Source: Candidatus Borrarchaeum weybense
GTDB lineage: Archaea > Asgardarchaeota > Sifarchaeia > Borrarchaeales > Borrarchaeaceae
Assembly: GCA_019057385.1 (NCBI GenBank)
Contig: JAHQJS010000005.1
Location: 96,001 to 160,000 of the forward strand
Reading direction: 5' to 3'
DNA: 64,000 bases
Part shown: positions 8,328 through 34,486 of the stretch, piece after piece
How the letters are laid out: each line of letters opens with the position of its first letter
Numbering within the stretch: the first letter of the stretch is position 1
Position numbers and translations under genes: made by a program
Notes under the pieces: model-generated
Told to the model about the DNA's origin: nothing
Database searches by the model: none
The model's input: the letters and a program-made list of their open reading frames with translations, nothing else

Positions 8328-8335
8328 ATTAAAGG

Positions 8336-8369: not shown

Positions 8370-8479
8370 AAGGTTCATCGGCGTTCCTTTCAGCTTTAGA
8401 GACGTGTGATGAGTGATCGATGAAAAAATAATCCACATTAGATTTGTTTAACGATAAAGCCAAAAAAAAGGAAAGGATA

Positions 8480-8761: not shown

Positions 8762-9035
8762 GATATGATAATACTTTAAGAACCTTTTGATTAAACAAGC
8801 ATTTGGTTAAAAGGATTTATGTTCTTTTGGGGAAAGGGTGGATTATAGTGAATGCTTTCTTTTCAGTAATTGTCTTTGAAACTATGAGGCAGTGAGAAAA
8901 AATGTAAGGCGATCTCTTAGTAACTAAAATATAATAGCCTCAAAAAGGCATAGATTCTCTCAATTATTTTATTTATTGATTAAAACCACAATAAAAGGAA
9001 AATATTAACGGGTGTGACCTTATGTGAATAATTCG

Positions 9036-9746: not shown

Positions 9747-9772
9747 TTTAAGTGCCTCAAAGAGATCGATTT

Positions 9773-10969
9773 TTATTTTTTATGTCCATGTGAAACATCT
9801 AATTGTACTGACTTCCACAGATCATCCAGTTGTCTTTCTACCCATCCTAACTCATAGAGAATCTTTTCACAATCTTGGTAAAATACATCTCGTGTGTGAG
9901 CATTTGAGTATTTTTTGTGAAAAAGCCCAATATCTAACAAACGACGATAAATCAGCCATCTGTATTTATCTATTTGATTAAGTTTTATAGCGATGAGTTG
10001 CTGAAACAAGGAATCAGCATTATAAATTGGTTTTTTGTGCTTAATGAAGTTTTCTAACTTAAAATAGAGCAGTTCAACACATTGATATCTCATCAATACT
10101 GCATTTCTGCGAATCCACATTTTGTGAAAAAAGCTGTCATCAAAGAAAATACTCAGGTCTTCAGCCCATGTTGTGATACCATCAAAGGAATATGATCCTA
10201 CAACTGGAGATTTATTCAGAAGTTCATTTGCATGCCAAATAGAGATATCTGTTCTTTGTGATTCTTTCTCAAATATATACCATAATAATGAAAAATAGAC
10301 ATCCGAACGATAATATCCAAAGGTTTCTGCATCAAGTGCAATAAGTAAAGGAGAAAGATGATTCTTGTGTGTTACCTTATCAAGGATTTGTTCGGCACGA
10401 GGCCATCCATGACTTAAAGCATAACTAAGGTCACGATTTCTTGGGAAAAGCTTCATTTCTGTTCCATAGAACTCACAATTATAAATACCCCCAAGATCTT
10501 GCTTGTCAAAAGCGATGGGATCTCCATCCACAATAATATAGCTAAGTCCTAACTCTGACAATGTGGGCACAATATCTTTTGCAAAAATCAATTCTGGGGG
10601 AAAAAATCCTGTTGGCGTAATCCCAAAAGAGTCACGTATCATTTTTAGATGATGAAAAGTCTGTTCTTTTAACAGACCATCTGGTGTAAAGATAGAGGGG
10701 GCCTGGTGAAAGGGGGAAGTCATCAGTTCAAGAACCTGGGAATCAACTAATTCCCCTATTAGACTGAAAAGATCATCTCTTTTCCTCTCAAACCATTTTA
10801 ATAACGCACCAGTAATATTTGCGGTGATTCTGACAGGGCTAAAGTTGTGTTCTAAATCTCGAATTAAATATAGTAGTCTTTCATAGCACTTTTTACAAAT
10901 TTCGAAAAAGATTTCGTCAGGACCGTAATAAGGATAATGAAAATGAAGTAATAGTGCGATATCTGTCAT
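9773..10969 (-). CDS. Glycoside hydrolase family 57 protein
   Basis: LHFHYP, ELMTSPFHQ, GFFPPEL (nucleophile Glu), ALDAETFG. Confidence 0.85.
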   Translation of the reverse strand: MTDIALLLHFHYPYYGPDEIFFEICKKCYERLLYLIRDLEHNFSPVRITANITGALLKWFERKRDDLFSLIGELVDSQVLELMTSPFHQAPSIFTPDGLLKEQTFHHLKMIRDSFGITPTGFFPPELIFAKDIVPTLSELGLSYIIVDGDPIAFDKQDLGGIYNCEFYGTEMKLFPRNRDLSYALSHGWPRAEQILDKVTHKNHLSPLLIALDAETFGYYRSDVYFSLLWYIFEKESQRTDISIWHANELLNKSPVVGSYSFDGITTWAEDLSIFFDDSFFHKMWIRRNAVLMRYQCVELLYFKLENFIKHKKPIYNADSLFQQLIAIKLNQIDKYRWLIYRRLLDIGLFHKKYSNAHTRDVFYQDCEKILYELGWVERQLDDLWKSVQLDVSHGHKK

Positions 10970-19188: not shown

Positions 19189-19608
19189 ATGGAGGAAAAA
19201 TTTATGCAATTCTCTCAGTTCTCTATAGCATTCCTGATTGACTTTATTGTGTTTGTAGCTATTGTGGCAGTTTCTGTAGCCATAACGTGCTGGCTTTGGG
19301 GCTATTCGAGATACAAATTTGCTTGGGGGTCAAGTATCGTTACTGGAATTGTAGCCGCTGTCGTATGGATTATATTTAGAATGTTACCGCTCGGTCGTTA
19401 TACCTTGGCTATTGCATTTGTTGCAGTCTTTGTAGTGATTCTTCTTGCACTTCGTCACTTTTGGCCTAAATTTTCTGAATGGCCAACAGCGTTTCTCGGT
19501 ACGCTGGTTTGTATCGTTATAGTCATTGTCATTTGGCTGGTAATTTCATTTATCATTGCGGGGCTGGGTTTGATAGCAGGATATCTGCCCCCACTGAGTA
19601 TATTCTAA
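19189..19608 (+). CDS. Hypothetical 4-TM membrane protein
   Basis: Four hydrophobic segments. Confidence 0.7.
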   Translation: MEEKFMQFSQFSIAFLIDFIVFVAIVAVSVAITCWLWGYSRYKFAWGSSIVTGIVAAVVWIIFRMLPLGRYTLAIAFVAVFVVILLALRHFWPKFSEWPTAFLGTLVCIVIVIVIWLVISFIIAGLGLIAGYLPPLSIF

Positions 19609-19774
19609 CACCAGAATCTAAAAAATTCTTTTCTTTTTTTTTAAGACGGTCATATGAGTTTTTTGAGAAGCTAAAATGAACTAAGAGATAATAAAATTCA
19701 AGACAACGAATGAAGAGCTGAAATAGATTATTATAAAAAAAAGGCGAAAAAGAGAAAAAATGGATCGGGATAGA

Positions 19775-20098
19775 CTATGTAACTTGTGCAATTATTGCAA
19801 GAATAGCGCCTATTATAACGAGTAATCCCCCGAGACCAAGCACAATTATACCAAAGATTAGGGCAAGTATTATGTATACCCACTCATCTAACTGATCTGC
19901 AACGCGGAGAACAATAATTATTATTCCGATAATTATTGATATAGCCGCTGCAATTAAGCCACCAAGAGCACCTAGCGAACTTGGAACACCAAGTCCGATT
20001 CCCACGAAACTCAACGCTCCTTGGACAATCATAAGGATTGCACCGACAATCACTAGTATCCATGCCGCTAATAAAATACCACCAGACGGTCTAGCCAT
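19775..20098 (-). CDS. Small Gly/Ile-rich membrane protein
   Basis: Hydrophobic GxxxG-rich helices; GGTGA SD. Confidence 0.7.
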   Translation of the reverse strand: MARPSGGILLAAWILVIVGAILMIVQGALSFVGIGLGVPSSLGALGGLIAAAISIIIGIIIIVLRVADQLDEWVYIILALIFGIIVLGLGGLLVIIGAILAIIAQVT

Positions 20099-20340
20099 AC
20101 AATCACCATTTCAATATCTTATTTCAGGTTAGGATGAACCCGATTTCCTAGTATATAACTTGTTCGCATTCAAGCTTGTAGAGAACCATGGACTTAAACA
20201 AATATCATAGAAGAAATCAACTTCAAGAGAATCAAATAATAACTATTTGAACACTATCGTTTTCTAGATCGAATAAGTGCCAATAACAAAGAATAAGGAT
20301 TCTCTAAAATTATATAGAAAAAAAGGAAAAAATAATAGGA

Positions 20341-21699
20341 TTATACTTTTGGCAAGATTTCGAGCGATTTATCGATTTGTTCCTGTGGCATTTCATAGTC
20401 AACAAGGTTTCCAGCGAGATATTCTTCATATCCTTTTAAATCAAAATGACCGTGTCCGCTGTAATTAAAAGCAATCACTTTTTCTTCACCAGTTTTTTTA
20501 CATTTTTGTGCTTCTTTGATCACTGCAACGATAGCATGATTGGTTTCTGGCGCTGGAACGATCCCTTCTGTCTTTGCAAAGATCACTCCTGCTTCAAAGG
20601 TTTCTATTTGATGGTATGCAACGGACTCCAAGATACCTTCTTTTTGCAGTAGACATAAACTGGGGGCGTCTCCGTGGTATCTTAATCCTCCAGAATGAAT
20701 TGGTGGTGGGACAAACTCGTGCCCAAGAGTGTACATTTTCACTATAGGAGCTAACTTACCAGTATCTCCGTAATCGTAGGCATAAGGTGCTCTTGTCAAT
20801 GTAGGAACCGCCTTCGGCTCAACAGCAATAAATCGGATATCTTTTCCTTTCAATTTGTCTGGAACAAACGGATAAAAGAACCCTGCAAAATTACTGCCGC
20901 CTCCAACGCAGCCAAGCATCATATCAGGATATTCCCCAATCTCTTCAAACTGTTTTTTAACCTCCTGACCTACAATTGTTTGATGTAGCAGGACGTGATT
21001 GAGCACGCTTCCTAGACTGTACTTAATTTTATCGTCGTTTAGAGCATCCTCCACAGCTTCAGATATTGCTAAACCAAGGCTTCCAGGATGGTCAGGATTT
21101 TCCTTTAAAACACTTCGTCCGACCTCTGTATTATTAGACGGACTTCGGAAAACTTCGCTGCCATAAGTCTGCATTAATACGCGTCTATACGGTTTCTGGT
21201 CGTAACTGACACCAACCATATATACACGGCATTTTATGTCAAAAAGGGCACATGCGAGGGAGAGCGCACTTCCCCATTGACCTGCACCTGTTTCAGTTGT
21301 AATTTGTTCTACACCTTCTTTCATTGCAAAATACGCTTGGGCGATAGCTGTGTTGGGCTTATGACTTCCCGTAGGGCTGAGATCCTCTCGCTTATAGTAG
21401 ATCTTAGCTGGCGTATCCAAATACTCCTCAAGCCGTTTTGCCCGATATAGTGGGCTTGGTCTACCTAATCGCCTGTAAGCCTCTTGTAACTCTTCAGGAA
21501 TAGGAATGTATCTTTCTGGGGACATCTCCTGTTGTAGAAGTGCAACAGGGAACAAAGGCATTAAATCAGGAGGACCACAAGGTTCTTTCGTTACAGGGTG
21601 TAACGGAGGAGGGAGAGGGGCTGGTAGGTCGGCTAATACATTATACCATTGAGTTGGTAACTCATCAAGGTTTAAGACAACTTTTACACCATCATACAT
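20341..21699 (-). CDS. trpB2: Tryptophan synthase beta chain, TrpB2 type
   Basis: [17 protein letters not shown] (PLP Lys), [28 protein letters not shown]. Confidence 0.96.
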
Positions 21700-21742
21700 T
21701 TTCAATCACCTCAAATTTTTTAGATTTCTATTTTTATTTTTC

Positions 21743-21748
21743 AAAAAA
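21743..21748 (-). terminator. Oligo-T tract between Trp leader and trpB2 (candidate attenuation terminator)
   Basis: T6 on the minus strand, 41 nt after the leader stop. Confidence 0.4.
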
Positions 21749-21789
21749 GTTGGAAACGAGGGGGTATCAATAGCTGTTGAAATAGTGGG

Positions 21790-21843
21790 CTACTGCCACC
21801 GCCAAGAATGCCAGGGATGCCAAGAAAAGTTTGAAAAGCTCAA
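21790..21843 (-). CDS. Trp-rich leader peptide (MSFSNFSWHPWHSWRWQ)
   Basis: TTG-started 17-aa uORF with 4 Trp in the last 10 residues, between a BRE/TATA and trpB2. Confidence 0.7.
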   Translation of the reverse strand: MSFSNFSWHPWHSWRWQ

Positions 21844-21886
21844 AGCTAAGTCAATTAAAAATTCAGGAGTAAAATCTGTTGGAGTT

Positions 21887-21903
21887 TTATAAAAACCTTT
21901 TTC
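21887..21903 (-). promoter_or_regulatory. BRE/TATA promoter for Trp leader-trpB2
   Basis: GAAAAAGGTTTTTATAA on the minus strand. Confidence 0.6.
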
Positions 21904-21951
21904 CGGGCAGGGTGGTTTAGCTTCAAGACTGAGAGAAAAGAAAAGACATTT

Positions 21952-21988
21952 TGTTAAAGCAAATCCCATTGGCGCAATCAAACCACCT
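21952..21988 (-). repeat. Motif B, copy 1 (similar to 23672-23709)
   Basis: + strand TGTTAAAGCAA..CC(A/G)TTGGCGCAATCAAA..CC(A/G)CCT at both sites. Confidence 0.85.
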
Positions 21989-22035
21989 AATCTGCCTATT
22001 TCTTTAGGCTTGTTATTTAAATCTTTCTCTGTTTT

Positions 22036-22183
22036 ATTACATTTTTCGTCCCCTGCGAGTCATCCATTCCCAACAATTGAGGCGTCGGACCTCTGAATTG
22101 GTTCAGTCTCATGCACAAGAACGTGTCCCACGTGATATACGAGGAACATACCGCCTTGTAACTCATGTATTCTCTTTCAAAGA
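22036..22183 (-). ncRNA. Long structured repeat, copy 1 (candidate guide-RNA scaffold)
   Basis: 139/148 identical to 23447-23594; own TATA upstream; nested hairpins on the minus strand. Confidence 0.65.
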
Positions 22184-22186
22184 TTC

Positions 22187-22194
22187 TATATAAA
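22187..22194 (-). promoter_or_regulatory. TATA box for repeat copy 1
   Basis: TTTATATA; predicted start site ~22166. Confidence 0.55.
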
Positions 22195-22351
22195 CACCGC
22201 GATTCTGCTAAACCAACTTTTTCTTACCACTTTTCGATCCTGAAAGCAAAGCAGAGCTGAGTTTTCTACAGCTTATTTTTATCCCTCATTAAGTTGCTTC
22301 CTGAAAAAACGAATTTTTACTGCCACTCCTCTCGAAAACAATTTAACGTTG

Positions 22352-22534
22352 TCACTTCTGTCGATTTTGCATCGCTCCCCACCTTGAAGATTTCTTCCTG
22401 TTCGTCAAATTTAACTCATGATGTTCCGCTAGGAGCCGATACAAGTTGTAACGTGGCAATAAAAAGTTGCATTCGAGGCAACAAAATGTTGTTTTAACAG
22501 ATTCAATACAATGATCCATTCTTGTCATGTTCAC
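22352..22534 (-). CDS. Small putative Zn-finger protein coupled to the Cas5-HD gene
   Basis: Overlaps the upstream stop (GTGA); CLEC..HH. Confidence 0.35.
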   Translation of the reverse strand: MNMTRMDHCIESVKTTFCCLECNFLLPRYNLYRLLAEHHELNLTNRKKSSRWGAMQNRQK

Positions 22535-23343
22535 AAACCACTATTCAAGTCGTCAAGATAGAGATTTACCATTAATAAGAGATGATTTTTCAAAGACGAA
22601 AACCCAAATTTTAACGCTTCGTTGATCTTATCAAGTGCTTGACATTTTCGAATAAAAGTATAAAGGGCATACGGGGAATATTGGCACTTTTCTATCTCTC
22701 TTTTTAATGCATCGAAATTTATCTTTTCTAGTTCAGTCACACGATAACGCGTGAACGCAGACCATCTAAATTTTCGAGAAATCATTGCAGAAAGTCTATC
22801 ATAATACTGAAGAAGAGGGAGAAGAGGCAATTCAGCCTCATCTGTATCATAGTTGTGGTGATTTTCCACAAACTTACGGACTTCTTCATCAAGTATATTA
22901 ACTTCAGAGTAGATTTTGCTCTGATGTCGATTAGTGTGTACGAAATCATGTAGTAACATAGCTATAACTAATGTTTCTTGCACGTTGGAGAGTTTAGGGA
23001 GTTTTTTACGGATCTTAATTGTTCTTGAAATATAGAGCGGATTTTTTTTGAGTTTACTAACAGAAGTCCATAAGATTTGCCCCATCCCTTCACATGTATA
23101 ACTCCCAACACTGTCAATGGCGAGCGCTTCTTCAAGTTTATATTCTGGAACGATGAACTCAACATTTCCATACCATGCCCTAAAGGTCATAGGCGCACGT
23201 CTTTGCCCTACAGTCAATTTTCCGAATACCCTAGGACGACCATTTATGGTCATCGCTCCAATATCGGCAATTCCAAAATGCCTGCGCCTTGAAACGATAG
23301 GAGTTTTTGTATAACCCATTAATTTAAAGTATTTTTGTGACAT
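22531..23343 (-). CDS. RAMP (Cas5-like)-HD nuclease fusion
   Basis: N-terminal YFKLMGYTKTPI strand and G-rich loop VGSYTCEGMGQI; HD motifs LLHD..HH..YDRLSA with C-terminal SLKNH (Cas10-type permuted order); GAGGGG SD. Confidence 0.75.
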   Translation of the reverse strand: MSQKYFKLMGYTKTPIVSRRRHFGIADIGAMTINGRPRVFGKLTVGQRRAPMTFRAWYGNVEFIVPEYKLEEALAIDSVGSYTCEGMGQILWTSVSKLKKNPLYISRTIKIRKKLPKLSNVQETLVIAMLLHDFVHTNRHQSKIYSEVNILDEEVRKFVENHHNYDTDEAELPLLPLLQYYDRLSAMISRKFRWSAFTRYRVTELEKINFDALKREIEKCQYSPYALYTFIRKCQALDKINEALKFGFSSLKNHLLLMVNLYLDDLNSGL

Positions 23344-23365
23344 TTAATCCCCTCTTTTTAGGTCT

Positions 23366-23396
23366 TATCTCCTCTTGAAACAAAAGAGAGGAGATA
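23366..23396 (-). other. Perfect 10-bp hairpin closing the copy-2 variable segment
   Basis: TATCTCCTCT-N11-AGAGGAGATA. Confidence 0.7.
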
Positions 23397-23397
23397 C

Positions 23398-23446
23398 AAA
23401 CCTTGCCAAAGTAAACGCTTTTGCAACTTTTATTAGTAAAGTGGGT
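23398..23446 (-). other. Variable segment after repeat copy 2: putative guide matching the cas7 promoter (24727-24776)
   Basis: 35/40 ungapped match with mismatches at positions 1, 6, 24, 30, 36, then 9 more matches after a 1-nt gap. Confidence 0.7.
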
Positions 23447-23594
23447 ATGACATTTATCGTTCCTTGCGAGTCATCCTTCCCCAACAATTGAGGCGTCGGA
23501 CCTCTAAATTGGTTCAGTCTCATGCACAAGAACGTGTCCCACGTGATATACGAGGAACATACCGCCTTGTAACTCATGCATTCTCTTCCAAAGA
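23447..23594 (-). ncRNA. Long structured repeat, copy 2
   Basis: Near-identical to copy 1; AT-rich TATA-like sequence upstream (~23600-23612). Confidence 0.65.
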
Positions 23595-23671
23595 GATACT
23601 ATTATTAATATAGTACACGTACAGGCGTCAAGAAGGAAGGAGAGGATTAACCTCTCCCTAAAGTAGGACGG

Positions 23672-23709
23672 TGTTAAAGCAACATCCGTTGGCGCAATCA
23701 AAACCGCCT
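23672..23709 (-). repeat. Motif B, copy 2 (within the variable segment after repeat copy 3)
   Basis: Matches 21952-21988; associated stem TACAGGCG (23620-23627)/CGCCTGTA (23705-23712). Confidence 0.85.
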
Positions 23710-23717
23710 GTATTTTG

Positions 23718-23845
23718 ATGACATTTTTCGTCCCCTGCGAGTCATCCTTCCCCAACAATTGAGGCGTCGGACCTCTAAATTGGTTCAGTCTCATGCACAT
23801 GAACGTATCACTCACAAAAGTAAGTGATAGTCCGTTATGAGATGA
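23718..23845 (-). ncRNA. Long structured repeat, copy 3 (core 23718-23806; 5' part structurally equivalent but different in sequence)
   Basis: 85/89 identical to the copy-2 core; replacement hairpin at 23806-23829. Confidence 0.65.
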
Positions 23846-23868
23846 GAAAAAAGAATGAGATGGAGTTA

Positions 23869-24687
23869 TCATGCAGTCACCGTTTCTTCGTTTTGTTCGT
23901 TTTGTTCGCTAAAATTCAAAGAATCCCTCCAATCCTCGATATTACTGAGAGAGATAGGTTTTTCAGTTGCTTTTTCGACAATTTTATAATTTCCTTTGTT
24001 ATCTTCCGCGACATTGCGAGTAGTTTCGATCTTCTGGAGGTCGAAATTGAAAATCGTGACGCGACCATAACCACTCGCTCGTCCTGCGCCCAGAATCTCA
24101 ACATATAATAGCGATTCCATGAGAAACTTGATTTCTGTATTCGTTAATTTGGTCACATCAATGTAAAAACTGAAATAGCCGCTGAAATAACTCTCCCTAA
24201 AATCTTGGATAGCTATACCATCATAGGTGAGCGCAATTCTGTTTTCACTAGCGATATGGACTTTTTGGACTGGAACTTCAGTTAAGTATTCTTTATGTTT
24301 GATTGAGGCAATAGGATCTGCTAACACATTAATAGAAGATTTCTCGCCAAATGCACCAAAGATTTTTCGCAGAATGCAGGGAGGATCACATGTACCAAGT
24401 GCATGAAAACCAGAAGGGATGAGTCCAGTGCCATCTTTGAATGTCTCCTTTTCACTGGTATGACATACCTCGATACCGCACTCCTGAGCGAGCGCCATAC
24501 AGGCATGTCTTAGCATCCCTCGAATACCTTTGATATAATAGAATTTAGTGTTGAAGGTTTTGTCTCCATTCACATACGGAAGTTCTCCTAACAAAAGCAT
24601 GGTCGAATTTTTTTGAATCGAGGCATTAAGAGGCTTAGCAATAGGGGTAAAAGCATGAACCACTAACTGTTTTTTGATTTTTCTCAT
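23869..24687 (-). CDS. cas7: Cas7-group RAMP protein (Csm3/Csf2-like)
   Basis: AFTPI, KGIRGMLRH helix, Cys cluster C..C..C-ILRKIFG, ENRI thumb, C-terminal LGAGRASGYGRV G-rich loop. Confidence 0.85.
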   Translation of the reverse strand: MRKIKKQLVVHAFTPIAKPLNASIQKNSTMLLLGELPYVNGDKTFNTKFYYIKGIRGMLRHACMALAQECGIEVCHTSEKETFKDGTGLIPSGFHALGTCDPPCILRKIFGAFGEKSSINVLADPIASIKHKEYLTEVPVQKVHIASENRIALTYDGIAIQDFRESYFSGYFSFYIDVTKLTNTEIKFLMESLLYVEILGAGRASGYGRVTIFNFDLQKIETTRNVAEDNKGNYKIVEKATEKPISLSNIEDWRDSLNFSEQNEQNEETVTA

Positions 24688-24721
24688 GTTTCTAACCTCA
24701 ATTATAGTTAGTACAAGTACC

Positions 24722-24776
24722 TATATAAACCTTGCTCAAAATAAACACTTTTCCAACTTTTATTAGTAAATTGGGG
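24722..24776 (-). promoter_or_regulatory. cas7 promoter (AAGGTTTATATA) and putative protospacer
   Basis: TATA at 24722-24729; upstream sequence duplicated at 23398-23446. Confidence 0.7.
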
Positions 24777-24780
24777 AATT

Positions 24781-24866
24781 AATTGACTTCCTTCTGAGAA
24801 AATAAGTATTTTAAACGGCTTTTAGCAAAAAAATCATTAAAAAAGTAGAACCCCCTTTATAAATAA
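24781..24866 (+). repeat. 86-bp degenerate direct repeat, copy 1
   Basis: 66/86 ungapped identity with 30135-30220. Confidence 0.8.
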
Positions 24867-25033
24867 CAACGTATTGAGACGATTTGTATTATTGTCTTTT
24901 TAAAAGAATAGTTGAACAATTTAACAAAATGAAACATTCTTGAAGATTCAAAAGGAATAAATTTATGGTCTCAACTGAACTAACACACGTTTTTAAAAGA
25001 ATATGTATACTATAACTGATTCTTAATTAAGTA

Positions 25034-28000
25034 TTAGGGTAAAAGATCCTTTACAGCAACTGGAGGACCTTTTTTCGGTGGTTTATAGATGCCTTCCAGA
25101 TGTTGAAACCGCTCATACATCAAGTGGAGAGTTTCCTTATCTGGAGCGTAGATAAAGGGGACAAAGCGCTTTTTTTCCAACAAAAAACCCTTGAGTTGTA
25201 GTGCGCACCGCCTTATAGCTTCCTTTACTGTCATATATTCTTCTAGATAGTATACCTTTTGAGCGAGTATGTTGTTAACCAATCTCTCAACTTTGTAGTG
25301 TCCATTCCAGTTAAGATGATAGAATCGTTCACGCTCTAGTGTTTTACGTCGAATGAAATCAGTTTTCGCAAATTTATCATGTATACATGCAAAGATGAAG
25401 GCGAACCTGAACAGGGGAAGAAACACCTCTCGGAAGTCAACAACAGTGCCAAGAAAAGATCTTTGTTTTTTCTTATAATGCAATATCAGTTCGTTGGGTA
25501 CCCAGGAGAACCCTGCCTCAGCGAGTGCTTTTCGACAGTAAAAGTTAAGGTGTCGATAGACAGCATTGAGTGCAGCACTAAAGGGAGTTCGCGCCTTTGC
25601 TTCCCCCAGAAGCACCACTGTGGCAATATAGCGGTCGAGGGTACGACTGATGATTTCAAAATAACTGCCCTGAAGCAAATGCTTGGGAACCTCCCAGGCA
25701 ATGCTTTCCACTACGCCTTCAAGACCGCGAAGGTTGTCAATATTGCCCCGCCAATAGAGAAACGTATACGCCACGCGATCCAGTAGTTGGGATAAGAATT
25801 CCTGTGCCTCTGCAGGAGATAATAATCCCTCTTTTTCAAAATGGAGAATTGCATTGGCGAGTCCCATATTTTTACTCATCACCAGCAACCTCGCTAATAA
25901 CTTGCCTCGTTCCGTCTCTCTGAGTTGCTGGGCGGCGTGTTTCAGTTCATCGGCTAATTGTTGTTTCTCGGGTGTCAGTGTATGCTCTACAAAGAATCTG
26001 CCTTCGGGCGAATTAATATCAATGAGTTTTTTACCATAGTTCTTACGAACCTGTTGCGTAACTTCTCCACCCTCGATGATGATGTGACGGATAGCACCGA
26101 TTAAATATCGCTGTGTTGTTTTCCCGTCCTTTAAGGAATGAGTAAATCGTTTTTTCTTAATATCAAGCTGTTCACCGCACTTGACACGGATGATTCGTTT
26201 TGGTCGTCGAATGTAAACCCTTGTTTTTTTAACCCGCGGGACATAATTTCCAGCCTTGCCTAAAAGCAATTCCAACCCTTTTAACATCAAACCTCGGCGG
26301 CCTGGTTTCACCACTAGGTCACCTTTCATGGTTAAATAATAGCGGGAATTGCATTCAGGACAGACGGTGTATTCGTTATAGCGTGACGGCAGTTCCACTG
26401 TACCGTCGGAGTTGCAGAAGTAGCATGGAGTATCATCAAGTGTTTCTTGTAAGACACGAATTGTGCGCTTTTTTAACTTCCGCGCTTTCGTATGATATTC
26501 GCAGGCACCCATCTTTGGTGCGACATAAGACTTTCTTGCTCGCCTTCCAACTTTTGTGTTATACTTACGATTCAACACGCAAATATGTGCACGTTTCGAT
26601 CTGCGACGGTCCTTCATGGAGTTTATCCGAAAGAAGCCACATGAGCCACAGGTGAGGCGCAGATGTTCAGGAAGACTCACATTCACATCTGCCACATAGA
26701 TTTTGGGGCGACCTCGTAACTGCCCTTGAGAGATAAACTGGATTTTTCCCTGGATTCCTAACCGCTTGACATGTTTAACTACCGTGGTGTAGTGAACTGG
26801 TCTTTTATATTGCTTACGAACTTTTGTCGTAATTTGTTTATAAGAAATAAGTTTATACTGTTTAATAAAGGTGTAGATTGCTTCCTGAAGTCCTGGATAT
26901 GGTTTCGGTCTATGTTTTGGATACCAGCGTCTCCTTCTGCCTTTGTTCCCTCTTTCAACTTCAGGCTCTTTGTATTCAGGATTTAGTTTTGAGGTAAGTT
27001 CTTTAGCAACCCTTGCCGCCCTCGGGTCGCTGCGCCCCAGATAGTCATAACTTGCTTCTGCGATCCATGACGCCGTCTTTCTATGTGCTTCTGCATCACC
27101 CGGTCTTATGTTTACCCGAGTTGCCGCTTCTGTGACTGAAGAACCCTGACTGAGTAACCATACGAAAGAGGTATATTGTTGGGTGGTGTATCGTGTGGTG
27201 CTGCTCACTTCATGCATGCTTCGCCCGATTAGTGTAATCACGTGCCGGGAGAATTCCCGTTCTGAGGAGCAGTGATGTGTGGCAAAAAAATTCTTGATCC
27301 TGATGGCGGTTTTAGTCGGCAGTAAAAATTGGCTGGCCCAGCGTCCTTTGGCTGTTGCACTAAACTTTCCACCATTTCTTTTGATAAAACCTTCCTTGAT
27401 AAGTGTGTGAAGGATTCCCTCTCTTTTTTTCTTCGGTTCATCCTGCTTAGGTCGAGCTAACAGTTTCTCTCTTAGTTGTTGTGTAAAGTCTTTCAACTGG
27501 TCGTGGGTGAATGGTGTCAACAGTAAGCGAAGCTCTCCATTTTTGATTCCGCGTGTAGTGGTGTTCTTCTTGACCCACATGAAGAATTTTCTCGTTACGC
27601 GTTTCAAGTCGAATGGGAGAGAGCCTTCGTGCGTTTCGCGCAATAAGGAGAGTAAATGAAGTTCGTTATTGAGCCAGCAAAGCTCCTCCTCATGAGTCAA
27701 GAGTGCGGTATTCATTAGTTCGGACCAATTCTGTAGCAACGCTTTGTGTTGATGCCAGAAGTAATGTCTTTCAAGTTTGAGGAGCAATTGTTTCGTGGAT
27801 ACCGAGCCTCTAGCTATCAGGGTGAGTACAATATCTGCCAAAGAAGAACGAGCTTGGCTTACTATACGATGTTCTTTGACTATCAATTGTCCTTCAACGA
27901 TTTGAATATCCTTTTGCTTCAAAATCTCTTGGTCGTCCCCCACGAAGATCAGATCGGCATAGCCCACCCGATGATGGCGCGGTCGTGCCGCCCTGCCGCT

Positions 28001-29125
28001 CAATTGTATCAACAGTTGAGAGCTGAACATTCCTGCATCGGCAATTATCACCCTTTTGATCGGAAAGTCCACCCCCTCTCCGTATTGAGTCGTTGATAAA
28101 AAGACCTGAAATTCACCCTTCTTAAGTTTTCTCATAGCTTTTTGTTGTTTCTCTTTACTGAGCCCAGCATGGCTGTAGCCAACGGTTAGATTGAGCCCAA
28201 AACTCTTTAGAAAGGTCTGCAATTCTTCAGCGCGTTGTTCAACCTGATTTCGTGTGTAGCAAAAGATATGCACGATTTTAGTCCGCTGATCATCGCCATA
28301 TGAGTGTAGTTCAAAGGTCTTTTTGATCAAGCGAGCGAACAGAAAGCGCTTTTTTCGTTCGATCTGCTCTATTGTGCTGCCTGAAACTCCAAAAGACGAT
28401 ACAATAAGTTTCGACCGCCGTTCTTTGGTATGGATAAGTTGAGCATCGAGCCAGCTTGCCAGTTCCTCAGCATTCCCCAAAGTAGCCGAGAGATAGATGA
28501 TGTGAGGACGAGGTCGCAACCACGCTTTCGCATTGACAATCGCGGTTTCTAGACACGTACCCCGCCCTTTGTTACCCAGATTATGCAGTTCATCGACTAC
28601 AATTAATCCTATCCTGTCTAAAAACGGATACTCGAAATGTTTGGCTAGCAGCCCATTGAAGGATTCGTAGGTGATGATGAGGATATCCGCAGTTTCAAGC
28701 TCTTCAGGAGACGGTCGGTTATCTCCGCTGACCCGGAGGATGGTGCAGATGTCGTGATACCACTCTTTGAACCTGTCATACATCTGATCGATCAGCCGTT
28801 TGGTCGGCTCAAGGATCACACAGCGCATCCCTTTTCCAAGGATGCGGGTGGACACTATTTGGGCGATCAAGGTTTTTCCAGAAGCGGTGGGAGTGTATAA
28901 CACTTTGTCATGTCTTTGCTTACCAGAAAAGCATGCCTCCCATTGAAAGTCATAGAGAAGTTTAATGTCAGCCTGTTCCAATTGTTGACGTATAAATTCG
29001 TAGTTTAACCCTCTTTTCGTCATTGTAAGGAACTGTCCCCTCAATCCCTGTGTCTCACTTATGATGGTTGAAAAGTTCTTTATAAAGAGGGCAAACCTTT
29101 GGATCACTGGCTTGATAACTGTCAC
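25034..29125 (-). CDS. SF2 (Ski2/Hel308-like) helicase - wHTH - Zn finger - Cas1 fusion
   Basis: PTASGKT, DELH, SAT, QLSGRAARP; CGSC/CYFC/CPEC; Cas1 motifs LRGLEG..W, PFSAALNAVYRHL, ILH, DFREVF; GAGGGG SD before GTG. Confidence 0.85.
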   Translation of the reverse strand: MTVIKPVIQRFALFIKNFSTIISETQGLRGQFLTMTKRGLNYEFIRQQLEQADIKLLYDFQWEACFSGKQRHDKVLYTPTASGKTLIAQIVSTRILGKGMRCVILEPTKRLIDQMYDRFKEWYHDICTILRVSGDNRPSPEELETADILIITYESFNGLLAKHFEYPFLDRIGLIVVDELHNLGNKGRGTCLETAIVNAKAWLRPRPHIIYLSATLGNAEELASWLDAQLIHTKERRSKLIVSSFGVSGSTIEQIERKKRFLFARLIKKTFELHSYGDDQRTKIVHIFCYTRNQVEQRAEELQTFLKSFGLNLTVGYSHAGLSKEKQQKAMRKLKKGEFQVFLSTTQYGEGVDFPIKRVIIADAGMFSSQLLIQLSGRAARPRHHRVGYADLIFVGDDQEILKQKDIQIVEGQLIVKEHRIVSQARSSLADIVLTLIARGSVSTKQLLLKLERHYFWHQHKALLQNWSELMNTALLTHEEELCWLNNELHLLSLLRETHEGSLPFDLKRVTRKFFMWVKKNTTTRGIKNGELRLLLTPFTHDQLKDFTQQLREKLLARPKQDEPKKKREGILHTLIKEGFIKRNGGKFSATAKGRWASQFLLPTKTAIRIKNFFATHHCSSEREFSRHVITLIGRSMHEVSSTTRYTTQQYTSFVWLLSQGSSVTEAATRVNIRPGDAEAHRKTASWIAEASYDYLGRSDPRAARVAKELTSKLNPEYKEPEVERGNKGRRRRWYPKHRPKPYPGLQEAIYTFIKQYKLISYKQITTKVRKQYKRPVHYTTVVKHVKRLGIQGKIQFISQGQLRGRPKIYVADVNVSLPEHLRLTCGSCGFFRINSMKDRRRSKRAHICVLNRKYNTKVGRRARKSYVAPKMGACEYHTKARKLKKRTIRVLQETLDDTPCYFCNSDGTVELPSRYNEYTVCPECNSRYYLTMKGDLVVKPGRRGLMLKGLELLLGKAGNYVPRVKKTRVYIRRPKRIIRVKCGEQLDIKKKRFTHSLKDGKTTQRYLIGAIRHIIIEGGEVTQQVRKNYGKKLIDINSPEGRFFVEHTLTPEKQQLADELKHAAQQLRETERGKLLARLLVMSKNMGLANAILHFEKEGLLSPAEAQEFLSQLLDRVAYTFLYWRGNIDNLRGLEGVVESIAWEVPKHLLQGSYFEIISRTLDRYIATVVLLGEAKARTPFSAALNAVYRHLNFYCRKALAEAGFSWVPNELILHYKKKQRSFLGTVVDFREVFLPLFRFAFIFACIHDKFAKTDFIRRKTLERERFYHLNWNGHYKVERLVNNILAQKVYYLEEYMTVKEAIRRCALQLKGFLLEKKRFVPFIYAPDKETLHLMYERFQHLEGIYKPPKKGPPVAVKDLLP

Positions 29126-29176
29126 AAAATCCCCTCTTTATAAATTAATTATAACCTATTGACAGTAGTGGCAACA

Positions 29177-30124
29177 ATGTCTTTCGAAGAACACCTTAAG
29201 CAAGGAAATGAGTTTTATGAACAGAAACAATACCGAAGGGCGTTAAAACATCTCACAAAGGCTGCAAAATTAAAACCAAAAGACTATCAACCTTGGCAGA
29301 AATGTGGAGATATTTATTTTACTTTGCACATCTATCAGAAGGCAATCAAATGTTGGAAAAAGGCGTTTGCGAAAAAACCTGACGAAATGTCACCCTTGGT
29401 CGGCATAGCTAATTCATACGGATTCTTGGGCGAATACGAAAAAGCCATCAAATACTGTCAAAAGATATTGAATACACAACCAAACTTTCCTTTAATTAAA
29501 CTCTTGATGAGCAATATAAAAGATGTACAAGAACATTCACCTCTTACCGATGAAGAGGTAGCAAAAATAAAAGAAGCAGATTCAAAAAAGGTCATCACAA
29601 GTGTCGTAATCCGTGGTATAGACTATTATGTTATTAATAACACATTAAAACTTCGCGATCTAAATATCAAAGATATTAAACACATCAAAGGATTGGAAAA
29701 TCTTACCAATCTCCAAGAACTTGATCTAAGCGGGAATAAAATATCAGTAATTGAGGGATTAGACACACTTTGCAATCTTCAAGAACTTAATTTAAGTGCG
29801 AATAAAATTACTATGATACAAGGTTTAGATACCCTTACCAAGTTACAAGTTTTAGAACTTTACGACAACCAGATCAATAGGATAACTGGACTGGATAACC
29901 TTACGCAATTGAAAAAGTTATATCTTAATGGGAACTCGATAGAAACAATTGACGGAGTGGAACAACTCACGAATTTGGAAGTTTTAAGCCTTGCAGATAA
30001 CCCTCTATGTGAGGAAGATCGACGCGTGTACGAACGAAGTGTGACAGCTATGGATGCCCAGTATTGTGTAAAATATTGCCAGAAAAAGATGTCGATATTT
30101 TCTACCAAGAGTCCTAATAACTAA
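29177..30124 (+). CDS. TPR + leucine-rich repeat (SDS22-like) protein
   Basis: Three TPRs, then 22-aa LRRs LxxLxLSxNKIxxIxGL; TTTATAAA at 29137. Confidence 0.88.
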   Translation: MSFEEHLKQGNEFYEQKQYRRALKHLTKAAKLKPKDYQPWQKCGDIYFTLHIYQKAIKCWKKAFAKKPDEMSPLVGIANSYGFLGEYEKAIKYCQKILNTQPNFPLIKLLMSNIKDVQEHSPLTDEEVAKIKEADSKKVITSVVIRGIDYYVINNTLKLRDLNIKDIKHIKGLENLTNLQELDLSGNKISVIEGLDTLCNLQELNLSANKITMIQGLDTLTKLQVLELYDNQINRITGLDNLTQLKKLYLNGNSIETIDGVEQLTNLEVLSLADNPLCEEDRRVYERSVTAMDAQYCVKYCQKKMSIFSTKSPNN

Positions 30125-30134
30125 ATAGAGAATC

Positions 30135-30220
30135 AATAGACTTCCTTTTATGATATAAAGTGATTAAAAAGGCTTTTAGTTGAAAAATCAAAGAAAGAGT
30201 AGAACCCTCTTTGTAAATAA
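30135..30220 (+). repeat. 86-bp degenerate direct repeat, copy 2
   Basis: See 24781-24866. Confidence 0.8.
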
Positions 30221-30603
30221 TATGAAGACTAAGAATGTAAGTTGATGAGATCTGAAAATATTTATTTTGTTGATTTACAGATCTCTTCAAATTAATTAGT
30301 CATAATTAACTTTTCAGAAAATTTATGTAGGAGAATCCATATTACATTTTAGTTAATCATAAGAAGCGATATTAAGAAGTTACTATATGAAAGATTATTC
30401 TGATTTAAATTTTACTTTCACCCATCACACTCTAACTCTTATTTGGGTTACATTAAATGTATTAATTATGAAGTTTAGTTGTGCATTTTTGTCAAAATAA
30501 AAATGATAATAATGCAAGTATGTGCTATCAAATAAGATGAGGGGCAGAGTTTACTCTTTTTAATGGGGAAATTCAATCTTCATCTTAACAATGATTTTAG
30601 AGA

Positions 30604-31308
30604 GTGATAAACATGGGAGCGATCGAAGGGTTTGTAGTAGGTATTGCCTCTAATGTAGCTTATGATTTAATCAAAAAGCTTTCAAGAATTGAAATATTCA
30701 AGCAGATACCAATAAGAACTAGTTTCAGTCTTGTAATTAATTTTAGAGAAGGTATCGAGGTTATTGAAATTGATAATAATTTGACTAAGACATTTCGAGA
30801 AGAGTTTGGAATCAAAAAAGATCAGAAGAAAGTACCATTTATTGAAATTGATAATCTAAAATTATATGTACTTATAGACTACCATTATCTTGAAGATAGC
30901 GAAAAAATCATTGATGCTTTGAATGATATCTTTGAAATAAGAGAGGAAGATGCAGTTCAACCAGAATTCATAGATGCATTAACCATACAAATTTTTCCCG
31001 ATGATACGAAAGAATTAGATGACATATTAATGGTTATGGATGTTTTGAAAGATATAAAGAGACTTATTCAACGTGATTACAATATTGAAAAAGATTTGAT
31101 CTGGCTACGCTTGGATGTTGATGATGAAAAATCAGCGATCTTAATACAAAAGAAACTTGTTGAAAGTTTTCCCGAATTAATTATTATTAAAAATAAAGAT
31201 ATGCAGAATAATGTTTTTTTGAAAATAAAAGATACTAGTGACTTAGAATTAAAACAAATAATAGATGTTCTAAAATCTAACAGAATCAGAAAAATACTAC
31301 ACATTTGA
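30604..31308 (+). CDS. Hypothetical acidic protein (island cargo)
   Basis: 234-aa ORF, very AT-rich, no recognised motif. Confidence 0.7.
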   Translation: MINMGAIEGFVVGIASNVAYDLIKKLSRIEIFKQIPIRTSFSLVINFREGIEVIEIDNNLTKTFREEFGIKKDQKKVPFIEIDNLKLYVLIDYHYLEDSEKIIDALNDIFEIREEDAVQPEFIDALTIQIFPDDTKELDDILMVMDVLKDIKRLIQRDYNIEKDLIWLRLDVDDEKSAILIQKKLVESFPELIIIKNKDMQNNVFLKIKDTSDLELKQIIDVLKSNRIRKILHI

Positions 31309-31317
31309 GATGATTTA

Positions 31318-32031
31318 ATGGTTTTTGTCTGCCGAGTTTTGAAAATTATGCCAAGATATGATGATCAAGTCAAGCAATTATTGAAAAAACCATCTGAAAT
31401 AGTATTTGATACAATAAGACAAAGTGAACTCATTGAATTAAAGCTATACATAGATGAACCTGCTGAAGAGAACGATTTTGGCTTTTTAATAACAGCCTAT
31501 GTTGATATACCTCAAACATTATGGAGTAAAGATACAGGTACTTATTCTACGAAAATCACAAAAAAACTAGAAGTTCAAATATTTACTACTCCTGAAGTTG
31601 GAAACTATTTAGTCGTATTTGCATCAAATATTCTTGTAAAGGAATTTGTAAATTCTGTAACTAAGATATTAAATACAGTTGAATGGTTTAAGCCAGTATT
31701 AATAGATACTGACCGAAAAGAGGAAGAGATAAGAAATGAGTTAGGCGATTTTAGGCGTGTTTACGTGAAAGATATGGATGATGATCTTGTAAAAACAGCA
31801 ACAATGGGTGGTCTAAGACTAGAATTGTCGTCAGATTATGCTAGATATATTAGAGATTATGGGGGTAGGCTAAGTGCAGTTTCGCTTATTTATGAAGGTA
31901 ATTGGATGATGATAACGTTTAGAGGAATTTTTTATTCACCTAGTAAAGATGCCGAAAGTAGGAAAGTTGAAATAATTCACAACTTACTGAAACTTCTAAA
32001 AGAAATTGATGCGCTAGATACATCATCTTAA
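31318..32031 (+). CDS. Hypothetical protein (island cargo)
   Basis: 237-aa ORF 9 bp after the previous one. Confidence 0.7.
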   Translation: MVFVCRVLKIMPRYDDQVKQLLKKPSEIVFDTIRQSELIELKLYIDEPAEENDFGFLITAYVDIPQTLWSKDTGTYSTKITKKLEVQIFTTPEVGNYLVVFASNILVKEFVNSVTKILNTVEWFKPVLIDTDRKEEEIRNELGDFRRVYVKDMDDDLVKTATMGGLRLELSSDYARYIRDYGGRLSAVSLIYEGNWMMITFRGIFYSPSKDAESRKVEIIHNLLKLLKEIDALDTSS

Positions 32032-32722
32032 GAATTTGCGGATTTTTAATTCTTTTCTTCACTCATCATTACCTAATATAGGAAAATACTCTTTCATCCG
32101 TTCTTTCAGTAATTCCTCCTGCAATGTTTTTTAGCATAAGACGTTTTATTTCCTCTTATTCTTATGCATGCTCCAATGCCCACCCTAGTTTCAGATAAAC
32201 TGTTTCTGGGAGCATGTCTTCTAGGTGATCACGCTTAAGAATTACAAGTAGGGCAACATCCAAGCAATTAAAAAGCAGTAATAAAATGTGGATCATAGTT
32301 TAAACTCAAGCTAAATTCCTCTTTAATTAAAACCGTCATTGCTAGCTAACAAAGGGTTCTGTTCATGTAAATCTTTATTTTATAAAAAACATCAAAAAAT
32401 AAAGTTTTCTCTGATTTTTTCATTACGATTAATGTTGTAAATTCATTTTCAAATTAACAAATTAACTAAAATTAATTTTAATTAAGTCAAAAGTCGAAAC
32501 AACGTAGGTACGTAATCAATTACCTGTTTTAAGTTTTTTTAGAGCATCAGCAGTATTAGCTTTTTGTTTATAAACTTAACGTTTTTGTAAGAATTGCCTA
32601 CTAACTCAGATAATGCAGAAAAAATAAGCAGGCAATGAATGCAAAAGAAAAATGTTCGATAGCCTTCTTGTAAATGAAGACAAAAGAGATGTATATGATA
32701 TATTGAGGGGCAGTCTAAAAAA

Positions 32723-34486
32723 CTATCCTATCAATGTTGCGAATTGTTCATCGATCTCCTTTGAAAGTTCATCACATGTCGCGTCTATTTTTTCGGGATC
32801 AATTATTTTGAGACGAGAGATGTTTTCGTAGACGCCCAGTTTAAGGATGTCCGCTATAGATGCACCACTTTCACTTGCTGCTCTCATCTTTTGATGTGTC
32901 TGCATGATTATTCCAAGCATTCGCTTTGCCTTATCTAGGGAACAGTAAGAATCGACTGGATGATATGCATGTTGCATCAAGTAGTCCTCGCGAATGATAC
33001 GCGCGGCCTCAAGCACTACTCTTTCAATCTCAGGTAACGCATCAGGACCTACTAATTGTACGATTTCCTTGAGTTCTTTCTCCTTTTGTAAAAGCGACAT
33101 AGCTTCAATTCTCAAATCTCTCCAATCCGCGCCTAAATTGTCTTTATACCATTCCTCAAGTGTTTCTTGATACAATGAATAACTAGTTAACCAATCAATA
33201 GCTGGGAAATGCCTTCGTGATGCTAAGTCTTTAGATAACGCCCAGAAGACCTTTACAACACGTAATGTGTTTTGCGTAACTGGTTCAGAAAAGTCACCGC
33301 CAGGTGGGCTAACTGCGCCAACAACGCTTACAGATCCATAACGTTCGTCAGAACCTAGAGTTTTAACTCTTCCTGCGCGTTCATAAAATTCAGCGATGCG
33401 GGATGCAAGATATGCTGGATAGCCTTCTTCTCCAGGCATTTCCTCAAGCCGTCCAGAGATCTCGCGAAGCGCTTCGGCCCATCTTGATGTTGAATCTGCC
33501 ATGATAGAAACATCATAACCCATATCACGGAAATATTCGGCAAGTGTAATGCCCGTGTAAATACTCGCCTCTCGTGCAGCGACTGGCATATTTGAAGTAT
33601 TGGCAATAAGGACAGTTCTTTTCATTAAAGGTTCGCCAGATCGAGGATCCTCTAGTTCTGGAAATCTTTCTAATACTTCCGTCATTTCATTGCCACGTTC
33701 ACCACAGCCAACATAGACAACAACTTGTGTGTCAGCCCACTGAGCAAGTTGGTGTTGCATGACTGTTTTTCCGGTCCCAAACCCCCCAGGAATGGCGCCC
33801 GTGCCTCCCTTGGACATGGGGAAGAAAGTATCAAAAATCCGTTGTCCAGTAAATAGAGGAACTATTGCGGGAATGTTTTCTTTGATTGGTCGAGGGACAC
33901 GAACAGGCCATTTCTGCATCATAGTCAAATCTTGACGTCCTTTATCCGTTTCAACTACTGCAATGACATCTTCAATTGTGTAGTCTCCTGCTGGAACAAT
34001 TTCAACAACCTTTCCAGAGGTTCGTGGTGGAACCATAATTCTGTGCTCGACTAAAGTCGTTTCAGGCACTGTTCCAAGAATGTCTCCACCAGTAACATTA
34101 TCACCAACGCTCAAGCGAGGCGTAAATGACCATTTCTTTGTCCGATCAAGAGGGCTCGCGACAATTCCTCTTGTAATGAAATCACCAGATAATTCTTTTA
34201 AGGAAGGTAAGGGACGCTCAATGCCATCGTAGATCTGGCTGATCAATCCCGGTCCTAATTCAACGCTTAAAGCGCCACCGGTAGCTATAACTTTTTCTGT
34301 AGGTCGAATTCCGGCAGTTTCTTCATATACTTGGATACTACACACGTCGCCTTCTAAGGCGATAACTTCTCCGATAAGTTCTTCACTTCCTACACGACAT
34401 ACTTCGTACATTTGTACGCCTGTCATGTTTTTAGCTTGAATTAACGAACCTGCAACTCGTGTAATTTCGCCTTCTATTGTTGCCAT
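32723..34486 (-). CDS. atpA: A/V-type ATP synthase subunit A
   Basis: [40 protein letters not shown]; no intein. Confidence 0.98.

Follow-up and report, generated by a model that had tools for sequence, protein, structure and literature searches.

The 64-kb stretch of DNA analysed here (the window) is part of the genome of Candidatus Borrarchaeum weybense (G000; 4.18 Mb on eight contigs) and contains three open reading frames (ORFs) of 1363, 272, and 270 aa, all on the minus strand, which are interleaved with three copies of an element of ~125 nt (Table 1). The encoded proteins are a helicase-Cas1 fusion, a RAMP of the Cas7 family, and a predicted Cas5-like RAMP fused to an HD domain (Cas5-HD). 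This gene set is the described divergent Cas1/Cas7/Cas5 module of Asgard archaea named ARAMP, an array-less system derived from type III (Makarova, Wolf, Shmakov, Liu, Li & Koonin 2020, CRISPR J 3:156, as summarised in PMC8730458 and PMC12669027). In these two summaries the mechanism of ARAMP is called enigmatic, and an RNA component is not mentioned there. Judged by its covariation, the interleaved element is the gene for a structured small RNA of ~125 nt, and the best-supported reading of the sequence comparisons is that the RNA belongs to this ARAMP subtype as its partner component and that the right end of a mobile element is marked by it. ARAMP modules are insertions that some sister genomes have and others lack, and the tail that follows the RNA at the end of an insertion matches the host target. 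In the searchable literature we found neither an RNA nor empty sites described for ARAMP, nor any tails that match a target; the proteins are already known. The relatives used for comparison were four genomes of the same genus (G001, G002, G003, and G004, the last being Candidatus Borrarchaeum yapensis) and one of the same class, which belongs to a different family (G005).

The 1363-aa protein matches the Pfam families DEAD (E 2.8e-27), Helicase_C (E 1.2e-14), and Cas_Cas1 (36.5 bits, E 3.9e-9), the latter exceeding the gathering cut-off of 22.3 bits, and its NCBIfam matches are Hel308, as the closest helicase, and cas1. Across seven helicase-Cas1 paralogs the Cas1-like motifs LNAxYR, LH[YF], and DFRExFxPxFR are invariant, which presumably correspond to the NYGY motif, the catalytic His, and the DxxEPFRP motif of Cas1, respectively. 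The Cas1 domain found no match in the PDB, neither by sequence nor by profile search, which fits an extreme divergence. The true start of the protein is likely the ATG at ~29023; the homology between the paralogs begins ~60 nt upstream of a TATA box, near 29145. The helicase-Cas1 gene and the divergently oriented gene next to it, which codes for a protein of tetratricopeptide (TPR) and leucine-rich (LRR) repeats, are flanked by a direct repeat of 98 nt (24769-24866 and 30123-30220, 76% identical) that holds a TATA-like box (TTTATAAAGGGGG, minus strand), and a related motif is present directly upstream of helicase-Cas1 (29132-29159).

The AlphaFold model of the 272-aa protein (predicted local distance difference test score, pLDDT, of 82.8) has its best Foldseek matches in the Cas7 subunits of type VII, IV, III-E, and III-A complexes (E 1e-7 to 1e-5), and according to this model the protein is a diverged Cas7. 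The 270-aa protein is only weakly matched by HD in Pfam (E 0.013). In its model (pLDDT 80.3) the C-terminal domain has as best VIA-align match, well ahead of others, the HD domain of Csm1 (6ifk_A; Z 8.7, root-mean-square deviation 3.3, 138 residues aligned), and the residues H132, D133, H140, H162, H163, and D182 of the HD domain are invariant. The N-terminal domain was matched by VIA-align to RAMP subunits of type IV, III, and I-D effectors and to Cas6 (7xfz_B, 9g9a_G, 7sbb_H, 3qjj_A; Z 5-6.5), and on the basis of the model we read it as a subunit of the Cas5 group. Modelled as a complex, Cas7 and Cas5-HD reach an ipSAE of 0.65, with 0.00 for the best control, a contact agreement between runs of at least 69%, and a partner pLDDT of at least 71; in calibration, 58 of 80 solved complexes and two of 110 mismatched pairs attained this value. 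The modelled interface is formed by the RAMP domain with its glycine-rich loop, and the score may mirror the likeness to solved Cas5-Cas7 complexes.

Upstream of cas5-HD and of cas7 there is one promoter/operator box each, box5 and box7. Such boxes are 85-97% identical inside one module and strongly different between divergent modules, which suggests, as far as can be judged from the sequences, a module-specific regulator or gene conversion. A reading of the two boxes as guide and target was set aside because their similarity spans the region from the RNA 3' end through to the TATA box, as a shared promoter/operator would, which explains the similarity equally well. Between cas5-HD and RNA copy A lies a stretch of ~350 nt that is missing from the canonical paralogous modules; it carries a 60-aa ORF (22352-22534, minus strand) with a C2H2-like zinc-finger pattern and a weak match to Pfam zf_C2H2_ZHX (E 0.022).

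A preliminary description of this DNA, made from the sequence alone, had reported three co-oriented minus-strand genes of this kind, with which ORFs, Pfam matches, and structure models agree; the models that it had asked for support the Cas7 fold, the Cas5-like RAMP, and the Cas10-type HD domain. It had also supposed that the proteins are probably not new, as is indeed the case for an ARAMP gene set, and had noted the lack of a short-repeat CRISPR array; Tandem Repeats Finder detected no CRISPR-like array in the window. A canonical array is located elsewhere in the genome (C4:145062-168289), with 51 copies of the 37-nt repeat ATTTCAATCCTTATTACTTAAGGAATTCTTTTGCAAC and 48 spacers of ~38-41 nt, and none of these 48 spacers matches the rest of the genome. 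The three repeat copies with a common 3' end and different following sequences were likewise confirmed by coordinates and alignments, and with ~25 copies genome-wide they are not due to chance.

These copies are located at 22035-22183 (A), 23446-23594 (B), and 23717-23865 (C). Copies A and B are 94% identical, the conservation of copy C is limited to the last ~93 nt, and on the minus strand all three end with AAATGT(A/C)AT, followed by a different sequence in each case. From the consensus fold of 22 aligned copies we built a covariance model, R1, and calculated its statistics on 57 copies from five genomes. In this family standard pairs occupy 93.5% of the cells, compared with 87.2% after column shuffling and 41-56% with slid partners, and compensatory changes occur at 15 pairs, including eight of the nine pairs of stem P1. 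At several positions the pair is mostly G-U, and this only in the sense of the gene; the opposite strand would give A-C there. The scaffold consists of the covarying stem P1, a closing helix P2, a hairpin P3, and a single-stranded 3' end ...GACGAnAAAnGT[C/G]A. A TATA-like hexamer at -42 to -26 (mode -31) precedes 18 of 52 RNA copies, compared with three of 52 controls. This box at a fixed distance, together with further conserved upstream sequence, is found at the copies after cas5-HD and at solo copies; those after cas7 are preceded by a T-run instead. No Rfam 15 family matched positions 20000-31000 of the window on either strand at E <= 1.

G000 has ~11 paralogous cas7/cas5-HD modules, six of them with helicase-Cas1, and the positions of the RNA in the modules are fixed. 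One copy follows cas7 and one follows cas5-HD, so that two per module are the norm, and nearly all of the ~25 copies in G000 occupy these two positions. Beyond the 3' end of the second RNA, paralogous modules are no longer homologous. R1 has 25 copies in G000; within the genus there are 21 in G004, nine in G001, four to five in G003, and three in G002, and a further 23 are found in G005. The other 145 sampled genomes of the phylum (of 150 beyond G000) contain none, R1 found no match, also with filters off, in 11 ARAMP loci that are more distant and come from Heimdall and Hod archaea, one of the contigs being filed under a Scalindua metagenome-assembled genome (MAG), and a scan for related loci with one Cas7 protein as query gave nothing. 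In G005 there is no Cas7 match and cas5-HD occurs as fragments only, so that either the modules are unassembled there, or the RNA genes outlive the proteins or spread without them.

A second ARAMP subtype is present in G000 at C5:80675-82390 (locus L021, ~15 kb before the window) and at L115 and L025. Its Cas7 is 42% identical, cas7 and cas5-HD abut, and helicase-Cas1 is not nearby. Directly after cas5-HD it has a different conserved element (in G000 at C5:~82270-82390, L021:7596-7715), the stem of which is kept by compensatory changes in three sequences. Since the second subtype has a conserved paired element of its own, an RNA partner may be general to ARAMP. A further observation concerns a truncated RNA gene in G001 (L081, contig C35; compared with G000 C4:793420-793720), in which a fragment comprising the 3' two-thirds of the RNA is inserted after the host sequence ...GGCGCATG. 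The host shares GCATG with the scaffold sequence GTGCATGAGAC, and the fragment looks like a microhomology-mediated partial insertion.

The comparison with the sister species directly revealed the locus as an insertion. Positions 6196-8966 of G004:C77 correspond to positions 19216-21987 of the window (94% identity) and positions 8978-9929 to 32549-33500 (96%), with 11 nt in between. G004:C77 thus joins position 21987 to 32549 across 11 nt, which means that the window carries an insertion of 10.5 kb, and the host target at its right end is contiguous with the flank in the G004 empty site. The inserted element contains RNA copy A, the zinc-finger ORF, cas5-HD, RNA copies B and C, cas7, helicase-Cas1, the divergent TPR-LRR gene, and two ORFs without a family. 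The insertion as a whole has no target duplication. In a comparison of the locus with contigs from four sediment metagenomes, the right junction at 21994 is spanned both in another sample from the same study and, in a different study, by a relative with ~91% identity; these contigs contained no joints of an excision or of an empty allele.

Two further elements of G000 have clean empty sites as well. One of them (C4:338955-349293, 10.3 kb) interrupts ftsY within its 5' end; ~114 nt from the start of the host gene remain at the left junction, and the element brings its own diverged ftsY start. At the place beside helicase-Cas1 where the window has the TPR-LRR gene, this element encodes a divergent TPR protein of 746 aa (L146:730-2970, plus strand), and the DNA there is not homologous to that of the window. 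The other (C3:91580-98503, 6.9 kb) is inserted in the 5' end of a gene for a PRC-barrel protein, between ...ATTG and ATATCC..., and supplies a new start codon. Among the ORFs of the window and C4 elements that were scanned with Pfam, helicase-Cas1 is the only integrase-like protein and no other recombinase turned up; the remaining ORFs have TPR, LRR, or HhH-GPD matches only, or none. Terminal inverted repeats above the level of shuffled sequences were not found at the ends of these two elements, and their left ends are dissimilar to each other.

Solo RNA genes were observed together with unrelated cargo, namely a RidA-like gene in L072 (G004:C17) and a 286-aa ORF in L019 (G000 C4:1261785-1263006). 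The insertions L072, L019, L079, L080, and L087 have empty sites in sister genomes and duplications of 38, ~13, or 3 bp, and solo RNA genes are also located 3-9 nt upstream of host start codons, among them those of what read as rpS19e and glmM.

Table 1. Features of the ARAMP element and its right flank, in coordinates of the 64-kb window.
Feature	Position	Strand	Description
Whole inserted element	21994-32540 (left end approximate)	-	10.5 kb; delimited against the empty site of the sister species
Host target	21952-21993	-	native chromosome just outside the right end; covers the start codon of a 63-aa ORF (21790-21981)
Unique tail of copy A	21994-22031	-	part of the insertion; absent from the G004 empty site
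RNA copy A, scaffold	22032-22156	-	R1 match 140.1 bits; own TATA box GTTTATATAG at ~22186-22195
Cas5-HD	22531-23343	-	270 aa; predicted Cas5-like RAMP (residues 1-108) and Cas10/Csm1-type HD domain (residues 119-270)
box5	23407-23445	-	promoter/operator box upstream of cas5-HD; 90% identical to box7
RNA copy B, scaffold	23443-23567	-	R1 match 139.8 bits; 5' half and promoter region like copy A; 3' flank is the cas5-HD promoter box
Terminator-like hairpin	23630-23658	-	GGGAGAGGTTAATCCTCTCC with a T-rich run behind it; immediately follows the guide-like segment
Guide-like tail of copy C	23672-23709	-	34-38-nt copy of the host sequence at the right junction of the element
RNA copy C, scaffold	23714-23837	-	R1 match 124.8 bits; 5' half of the after-cas7 type
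Cas7-family RAMP	23869-24687	-	272 aa; Pfam RAMPs, E 1.5e-7
box7	24737-24775	-	promoter/operator box upstream of cas7; counterpart of box5
Helicase-Cas1 fusion	25034-29125	-	1363 aa; Hel308/Ski2-type helicase, Zn-cluster/winged helix-turn-helix linker, C-terminal Cas1
TPR and LRR repeat protein	29159-30124	+	Pfam; divergent from helicase-Cas1, within the insertion

The sequence following the RNA links the element to its site of insertion. For copy C the best local match of the tail on the same strand within positions 1-23600 of the window is 21952-21988, just outside the right end of the element, with 34 identities in 39 columns and a score of 47; shuffled sequences gave a mean of 22.6 (standard deviation 2.0) and a maximum of 29. 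The tail also matches the G004 empty site, and scaffold and tail of copy C fold together with a z of -4.5. For 15 terminal RNAs that have an empty site in a sister genome we aligned the 80 nt after the scaffold to this site, and in 14 of them the tail matches with a z of 7-50 against shuffles. The start of the match is constant, ~9-10 nt after the conserved GT[C/G]A. Five ARAMP elements have a discrete tail segment, i.e., copy C of the window, the elements at pyrD and ftsY, a module of G004, and L073, and the C3 element is a sixth. Their layout is scaffold, target copy, a hairpin or T-run, 150-1700 nt of element DNA, and then the host target itself. Tail and target agree at 36 of 38 positions for the pyrD element, and the tail of the ftsY element agrees at 28 of 35 positions with the G004 ftsY directly after the break; the matches extend over 78 nt for the module on G004:C46 and over 30 nt for L073. 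The 32-nt tail of the C3 element is 97% identical to the empty site of G004 and 94% to that of G002, and its own resident copy agrees at 25 of 30 positions. All tails are in the sense of the downstream host gene.

The three-copy layout of the window is atypical, as two copies per module are the norm. Copy C has a 5' half of the after-cas7 type, followed by the guide-like segment and the hairpin, and copy B has a promoter and 5' half of the after-cas5-HD type, followed by the cas5-HD promoter box, with a spacing of 271 nt from C to B. This looks like a 271-nt unit of promoter, RNA, guide, and terminator which has entered a canonical two-RNA module by recombination with its first RNA; a circle of 271 nt recombining with the first RNA through the shared scaffold would give the observed arrangement of C and B.

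Our preferred reading of these data, to which we give about even chances, is that the scaffold with its target-matching tail would guide Cas7 and Cas5-HD to the host site for Cas1-dependent homing and not for array-based immunity. In this model, the RNA would serve Cas7 and the Cas5-like RAMP of Cas5-HD as a platform for assembly, the scaffold being the handle and the tail the guide. As the tails have the same sense as the co-oriented host gene, a tail could pair with the DNA template strand of this gene only and not with the mRNA. The complex would recognise the host site, and helicase-Cas1 would insert or maintain the element at the 5' edge of the site, and the interrupted host gene would obtain from the element a terminator and a promoter, plus a new 5' end if it needs one. 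New guides might be gained from the flank that is read through at each insertion, or by recombination of small promoter-RNA-guide units, as copy C suggests. The wider claim is made tentatively and is in our estimation possible, though less likely than not: ARAMP elements would be RNA-guided mobile elements of a new class, in which Cas7/Cas5-HD carries one guide RNA with a long scaffold and helicase-Cas1 integrates precisely at the 5' edge of the target.

Several observations weigh against homing by a guide RNA. Copy A lies 48 nt from the junction, and its 48-nt tail matches nothing in its own genome and nothing in the five relatives with up to three mismatches (it may be a former guide), and the tails of modules L014 and L010 have no match within the genus. 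Eight of the 14 tail matches are plain contiguity, the RNA 3' end being the exact right end of the insertion, the guide-like segments range in length from 30 to 78 nt, and no clear motif resembling a protospacer-adjacent motif was found. The normal CRISPR array of the genome could in principle supply CRISPR RNAs (crRNAs). Furthermore, G005 and G001 with their 23 and nine R1 copies show no intact cas7 with the queries used (these MAGs are 80% and 76% complete, respectively), and many solo RNA genes lie in fragmentary sister MAGs (69-80% complete) in which no intact cas7 was seen. Finally, what is seen at some insertions resembles a simple target-site duplication, the length of which varies, with 38 bp in L072, ~27-30 bp twice in L073, ~13 bp in L018, and 3 bp in L019 and L079.

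The preliminary description had proposed that the repeats are scaffolds for individually encoded guides. Of this idea the scaffold has held, as a structured RNA linked to cas7/cas5-HD, but a discrete guide-like segment is present in copy C only: copy B is followed by a promoter box, the tail of A has no match that could be found, and the segment of C corresponds to the host chromosome at its own insertion junction and not to a foreign target. The genome search with a covariance model that had been suggested ties R1 to the modules in G000, whereas the solo RNA genes of the fragmentary sister MAGs partly show the widespread occurrence unlinked to cas7 that had been named as speaking against the idea. 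The suggested coupling to Cas1-mediated integration has become plausible, since helicase-Cas1 is the sole integrase-like gene of the insertion on which the module resides.

As the duplications vary in length, the tail copies could have arisen as a side effect of integration, or of a second insertion, instead of being guides. According to this explanation, which is the main rival and which we regard as rather unlikely, the RNA of the element is real and the host-like segments are flanks or target-site duplications that arose by staggered integration of the Cas1 type and by later insertions; the RNA could then have another role, such as that of a terminal element to which the RAMPs bind and which serves processing or stability, or that of a leader driving and regulating the downstream host gene. 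Direct duplications that vary from 3 to 38 bp and reach up to 118 bp are in line with it, as is the high share of contiguous matches, in which the RNA 3' end is often separated by 3-9 nt from the start codon of a host gene in the same orientation (at least five insertions: L019, L079, L080, L087, and L016), and in G001 tandem RNAs are separated by a promoter only. However, the composite layout of scaffold, 30-78-nt target copy, hairpin, element DNA, and target recurs in five independent elements, a two-step origin at ftsY would require passing through a broken single-copy gene, and the non-coding tail at the PRC-barrel gene is nearer to the sister empty site than to the resident coding copy.

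It is improbable, in our judgement, that the element acts at the level of DNA, as a folded single-stranded recombination site like the attC of integrons, which would be recognised by helicase-Cas1 at the ends of gene cassettes, its transcription being incidental. The order of promoter, gene, and element, which occurs twice per module, does resemble cassettes, the cargo cassettes with the RidA-like gene and the 286-aa ORF terminate in the element, its 3' end is the exact insertion boundary, and the integrase is fused to a helicase. A TATA box at a fixed upstream distance and terminators downstream nevertheless speak against a DNA site, as do the many G-U pairs of one strand only, which would be weak as G-T in DNA, and the two RAMPs, i.e., RNA-binding proteins, which accompany the element.

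A programmable defence effector that uses individually encoded guides against invading nucleic acids, as initially envisaged, would agree with the folds of Cas7 and Cas5-HD and with variable tails behind a constant scaffold. It is nonetheless highly improbable: each tail that could be placed finds its match where its own element is inserted, in the host target or the flank, and nowhere else, viral collections not having been searched; elsewhere in its own genome no tail has a match except for promoter boxes and junction copies; and the ARAMP modules behave as insertions that are present or absent among sister genomes. The idea that the repeat encodes a small protein, for which one frame is open in all three copies of the window and stop-free in 36 of 44 copies, with five of the seven differences between copies A and B being synonymous in it, has next to no probability and was rejected, since an ATG start codon is not conserved, the copy lengths of 121-131 nt fall into all classes modulo 3, compensatory double substitutions preserve the pairing of the variable stem and rewrite the peptide, and a 122-aa ORF over the repeat at copy C has no Pfam or NCBIfam match.

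In the current CRISPR classification ARAMP and the haloarchaeal HRAMP are array-less systems of unknown mechanism, and the puzzle they pose is how RAMPs that hold a crRNA elsewhere work without crRNA. A dedicated structured RNA, clean empty sites, and a tail that copies the target turn this puzzle for ARAMP into concrete experiments. If homing by the guide-like tail holds true, it would be the first case of an RNA-guided Cas1 integrase and would link the two known lives of Cas1, as casposon integrase and in CRISPR adaptation, to RNA guidance, which bears on the origin of CRISPR. A compact system for RNA-directed DNA insertion made of Cas7, Cas5-HD, and one helicase-Cas1 would then also be possible.

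Compared with known systems, the locus differs from type III CRISPR-Cas, which needs Cas10 with its Palm/cyclase domain and an array, in that only a Cas10-like HD domain is present, in a protein of 270 aa, and that the window contains no array. CRISPR-associated transposons (CAST; the Tn7-like types I-F3, I-B, and V-K) carry Tn7-like genes (TnsB, TnsC, TniQ) and transposon ends, and their homing guide matches the chromosomal attachment site outside one end. In common with them, copy C and the further elements have an element-borne RNA with a guide-like segment that matches the site beside the element end, and a recognition of the Cas7/Cas5 type would act without interference. In contrast to CAST, the scanned ORFs have no match to a transposase family, TnsA/B/C and TniQ not having been sought by name; the candidate integrase is helicase-Cas1, there is no CRISPR repeat or array and one long scaffold per guide instead, the insertion is at the edge of the target and not ~50 bp away from it, and terminal inverted repeats are absent.

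The OMEGA systems (TnpB and IscB with omega-RNA, in IS200/IS605) have a scaffold that is encoded at the element end, a guide templated by the sequence beyond this end, and a RuvC nuclease. The eight solo RNA genes whose 3' end abuts the host flank resemble this arrangement. However, the proteins of the ARAMP elements are RAMPs, an HD domain, and Cas1, the full elements carry an internal target copy with a terminator, and the RNA has no Rfam match; the element ORFs have no Pfam match to TnpB or IscB at the thresholds used, where no search was aimed at TnpB or IscB models. Casposons are self-synthesising transposons with a Cas1-solo, a family-B DNA polymerase, terminal inverted repeats, and a target duplication of 14-15 bp (PMC9939771). 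They have in common with the elements described here a Cas1 homolog as presumed integrase and duplications at some of the insertions, which in our case are of variable length; the scanned element ORFs include no family-B polymerase, the inverted repeats are missing, and RAMPs and an RNA are present. VIPR combines a RAMP-family protein with a vrRNA of tandem GGY/NN pentamers, which is read in a gapped code, and is mostly phage-borne and without Cas1 (bioRxiv 10.64898/2026.04.26.720920). It is thus similar in the pairing of a RAMP-family protein with an adjacent non-array RNA, which in our case is a folded scaffold of 125 nt with a contiguous tail. With ARAMP, as far as it is described in the two summaries, the locus shares the diverged Cas7, the Cas5 with a nuclease domain, the distinct Cas1, the lack of an adjacent array, the Asgard host, and the affinity to type III, to which the Cas10-like HD domain conforms. 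Beyond that description it shows a covarying structured RNA in every module, empty sites in sister genomes, and a terminal RNA whose tail matches the host target.

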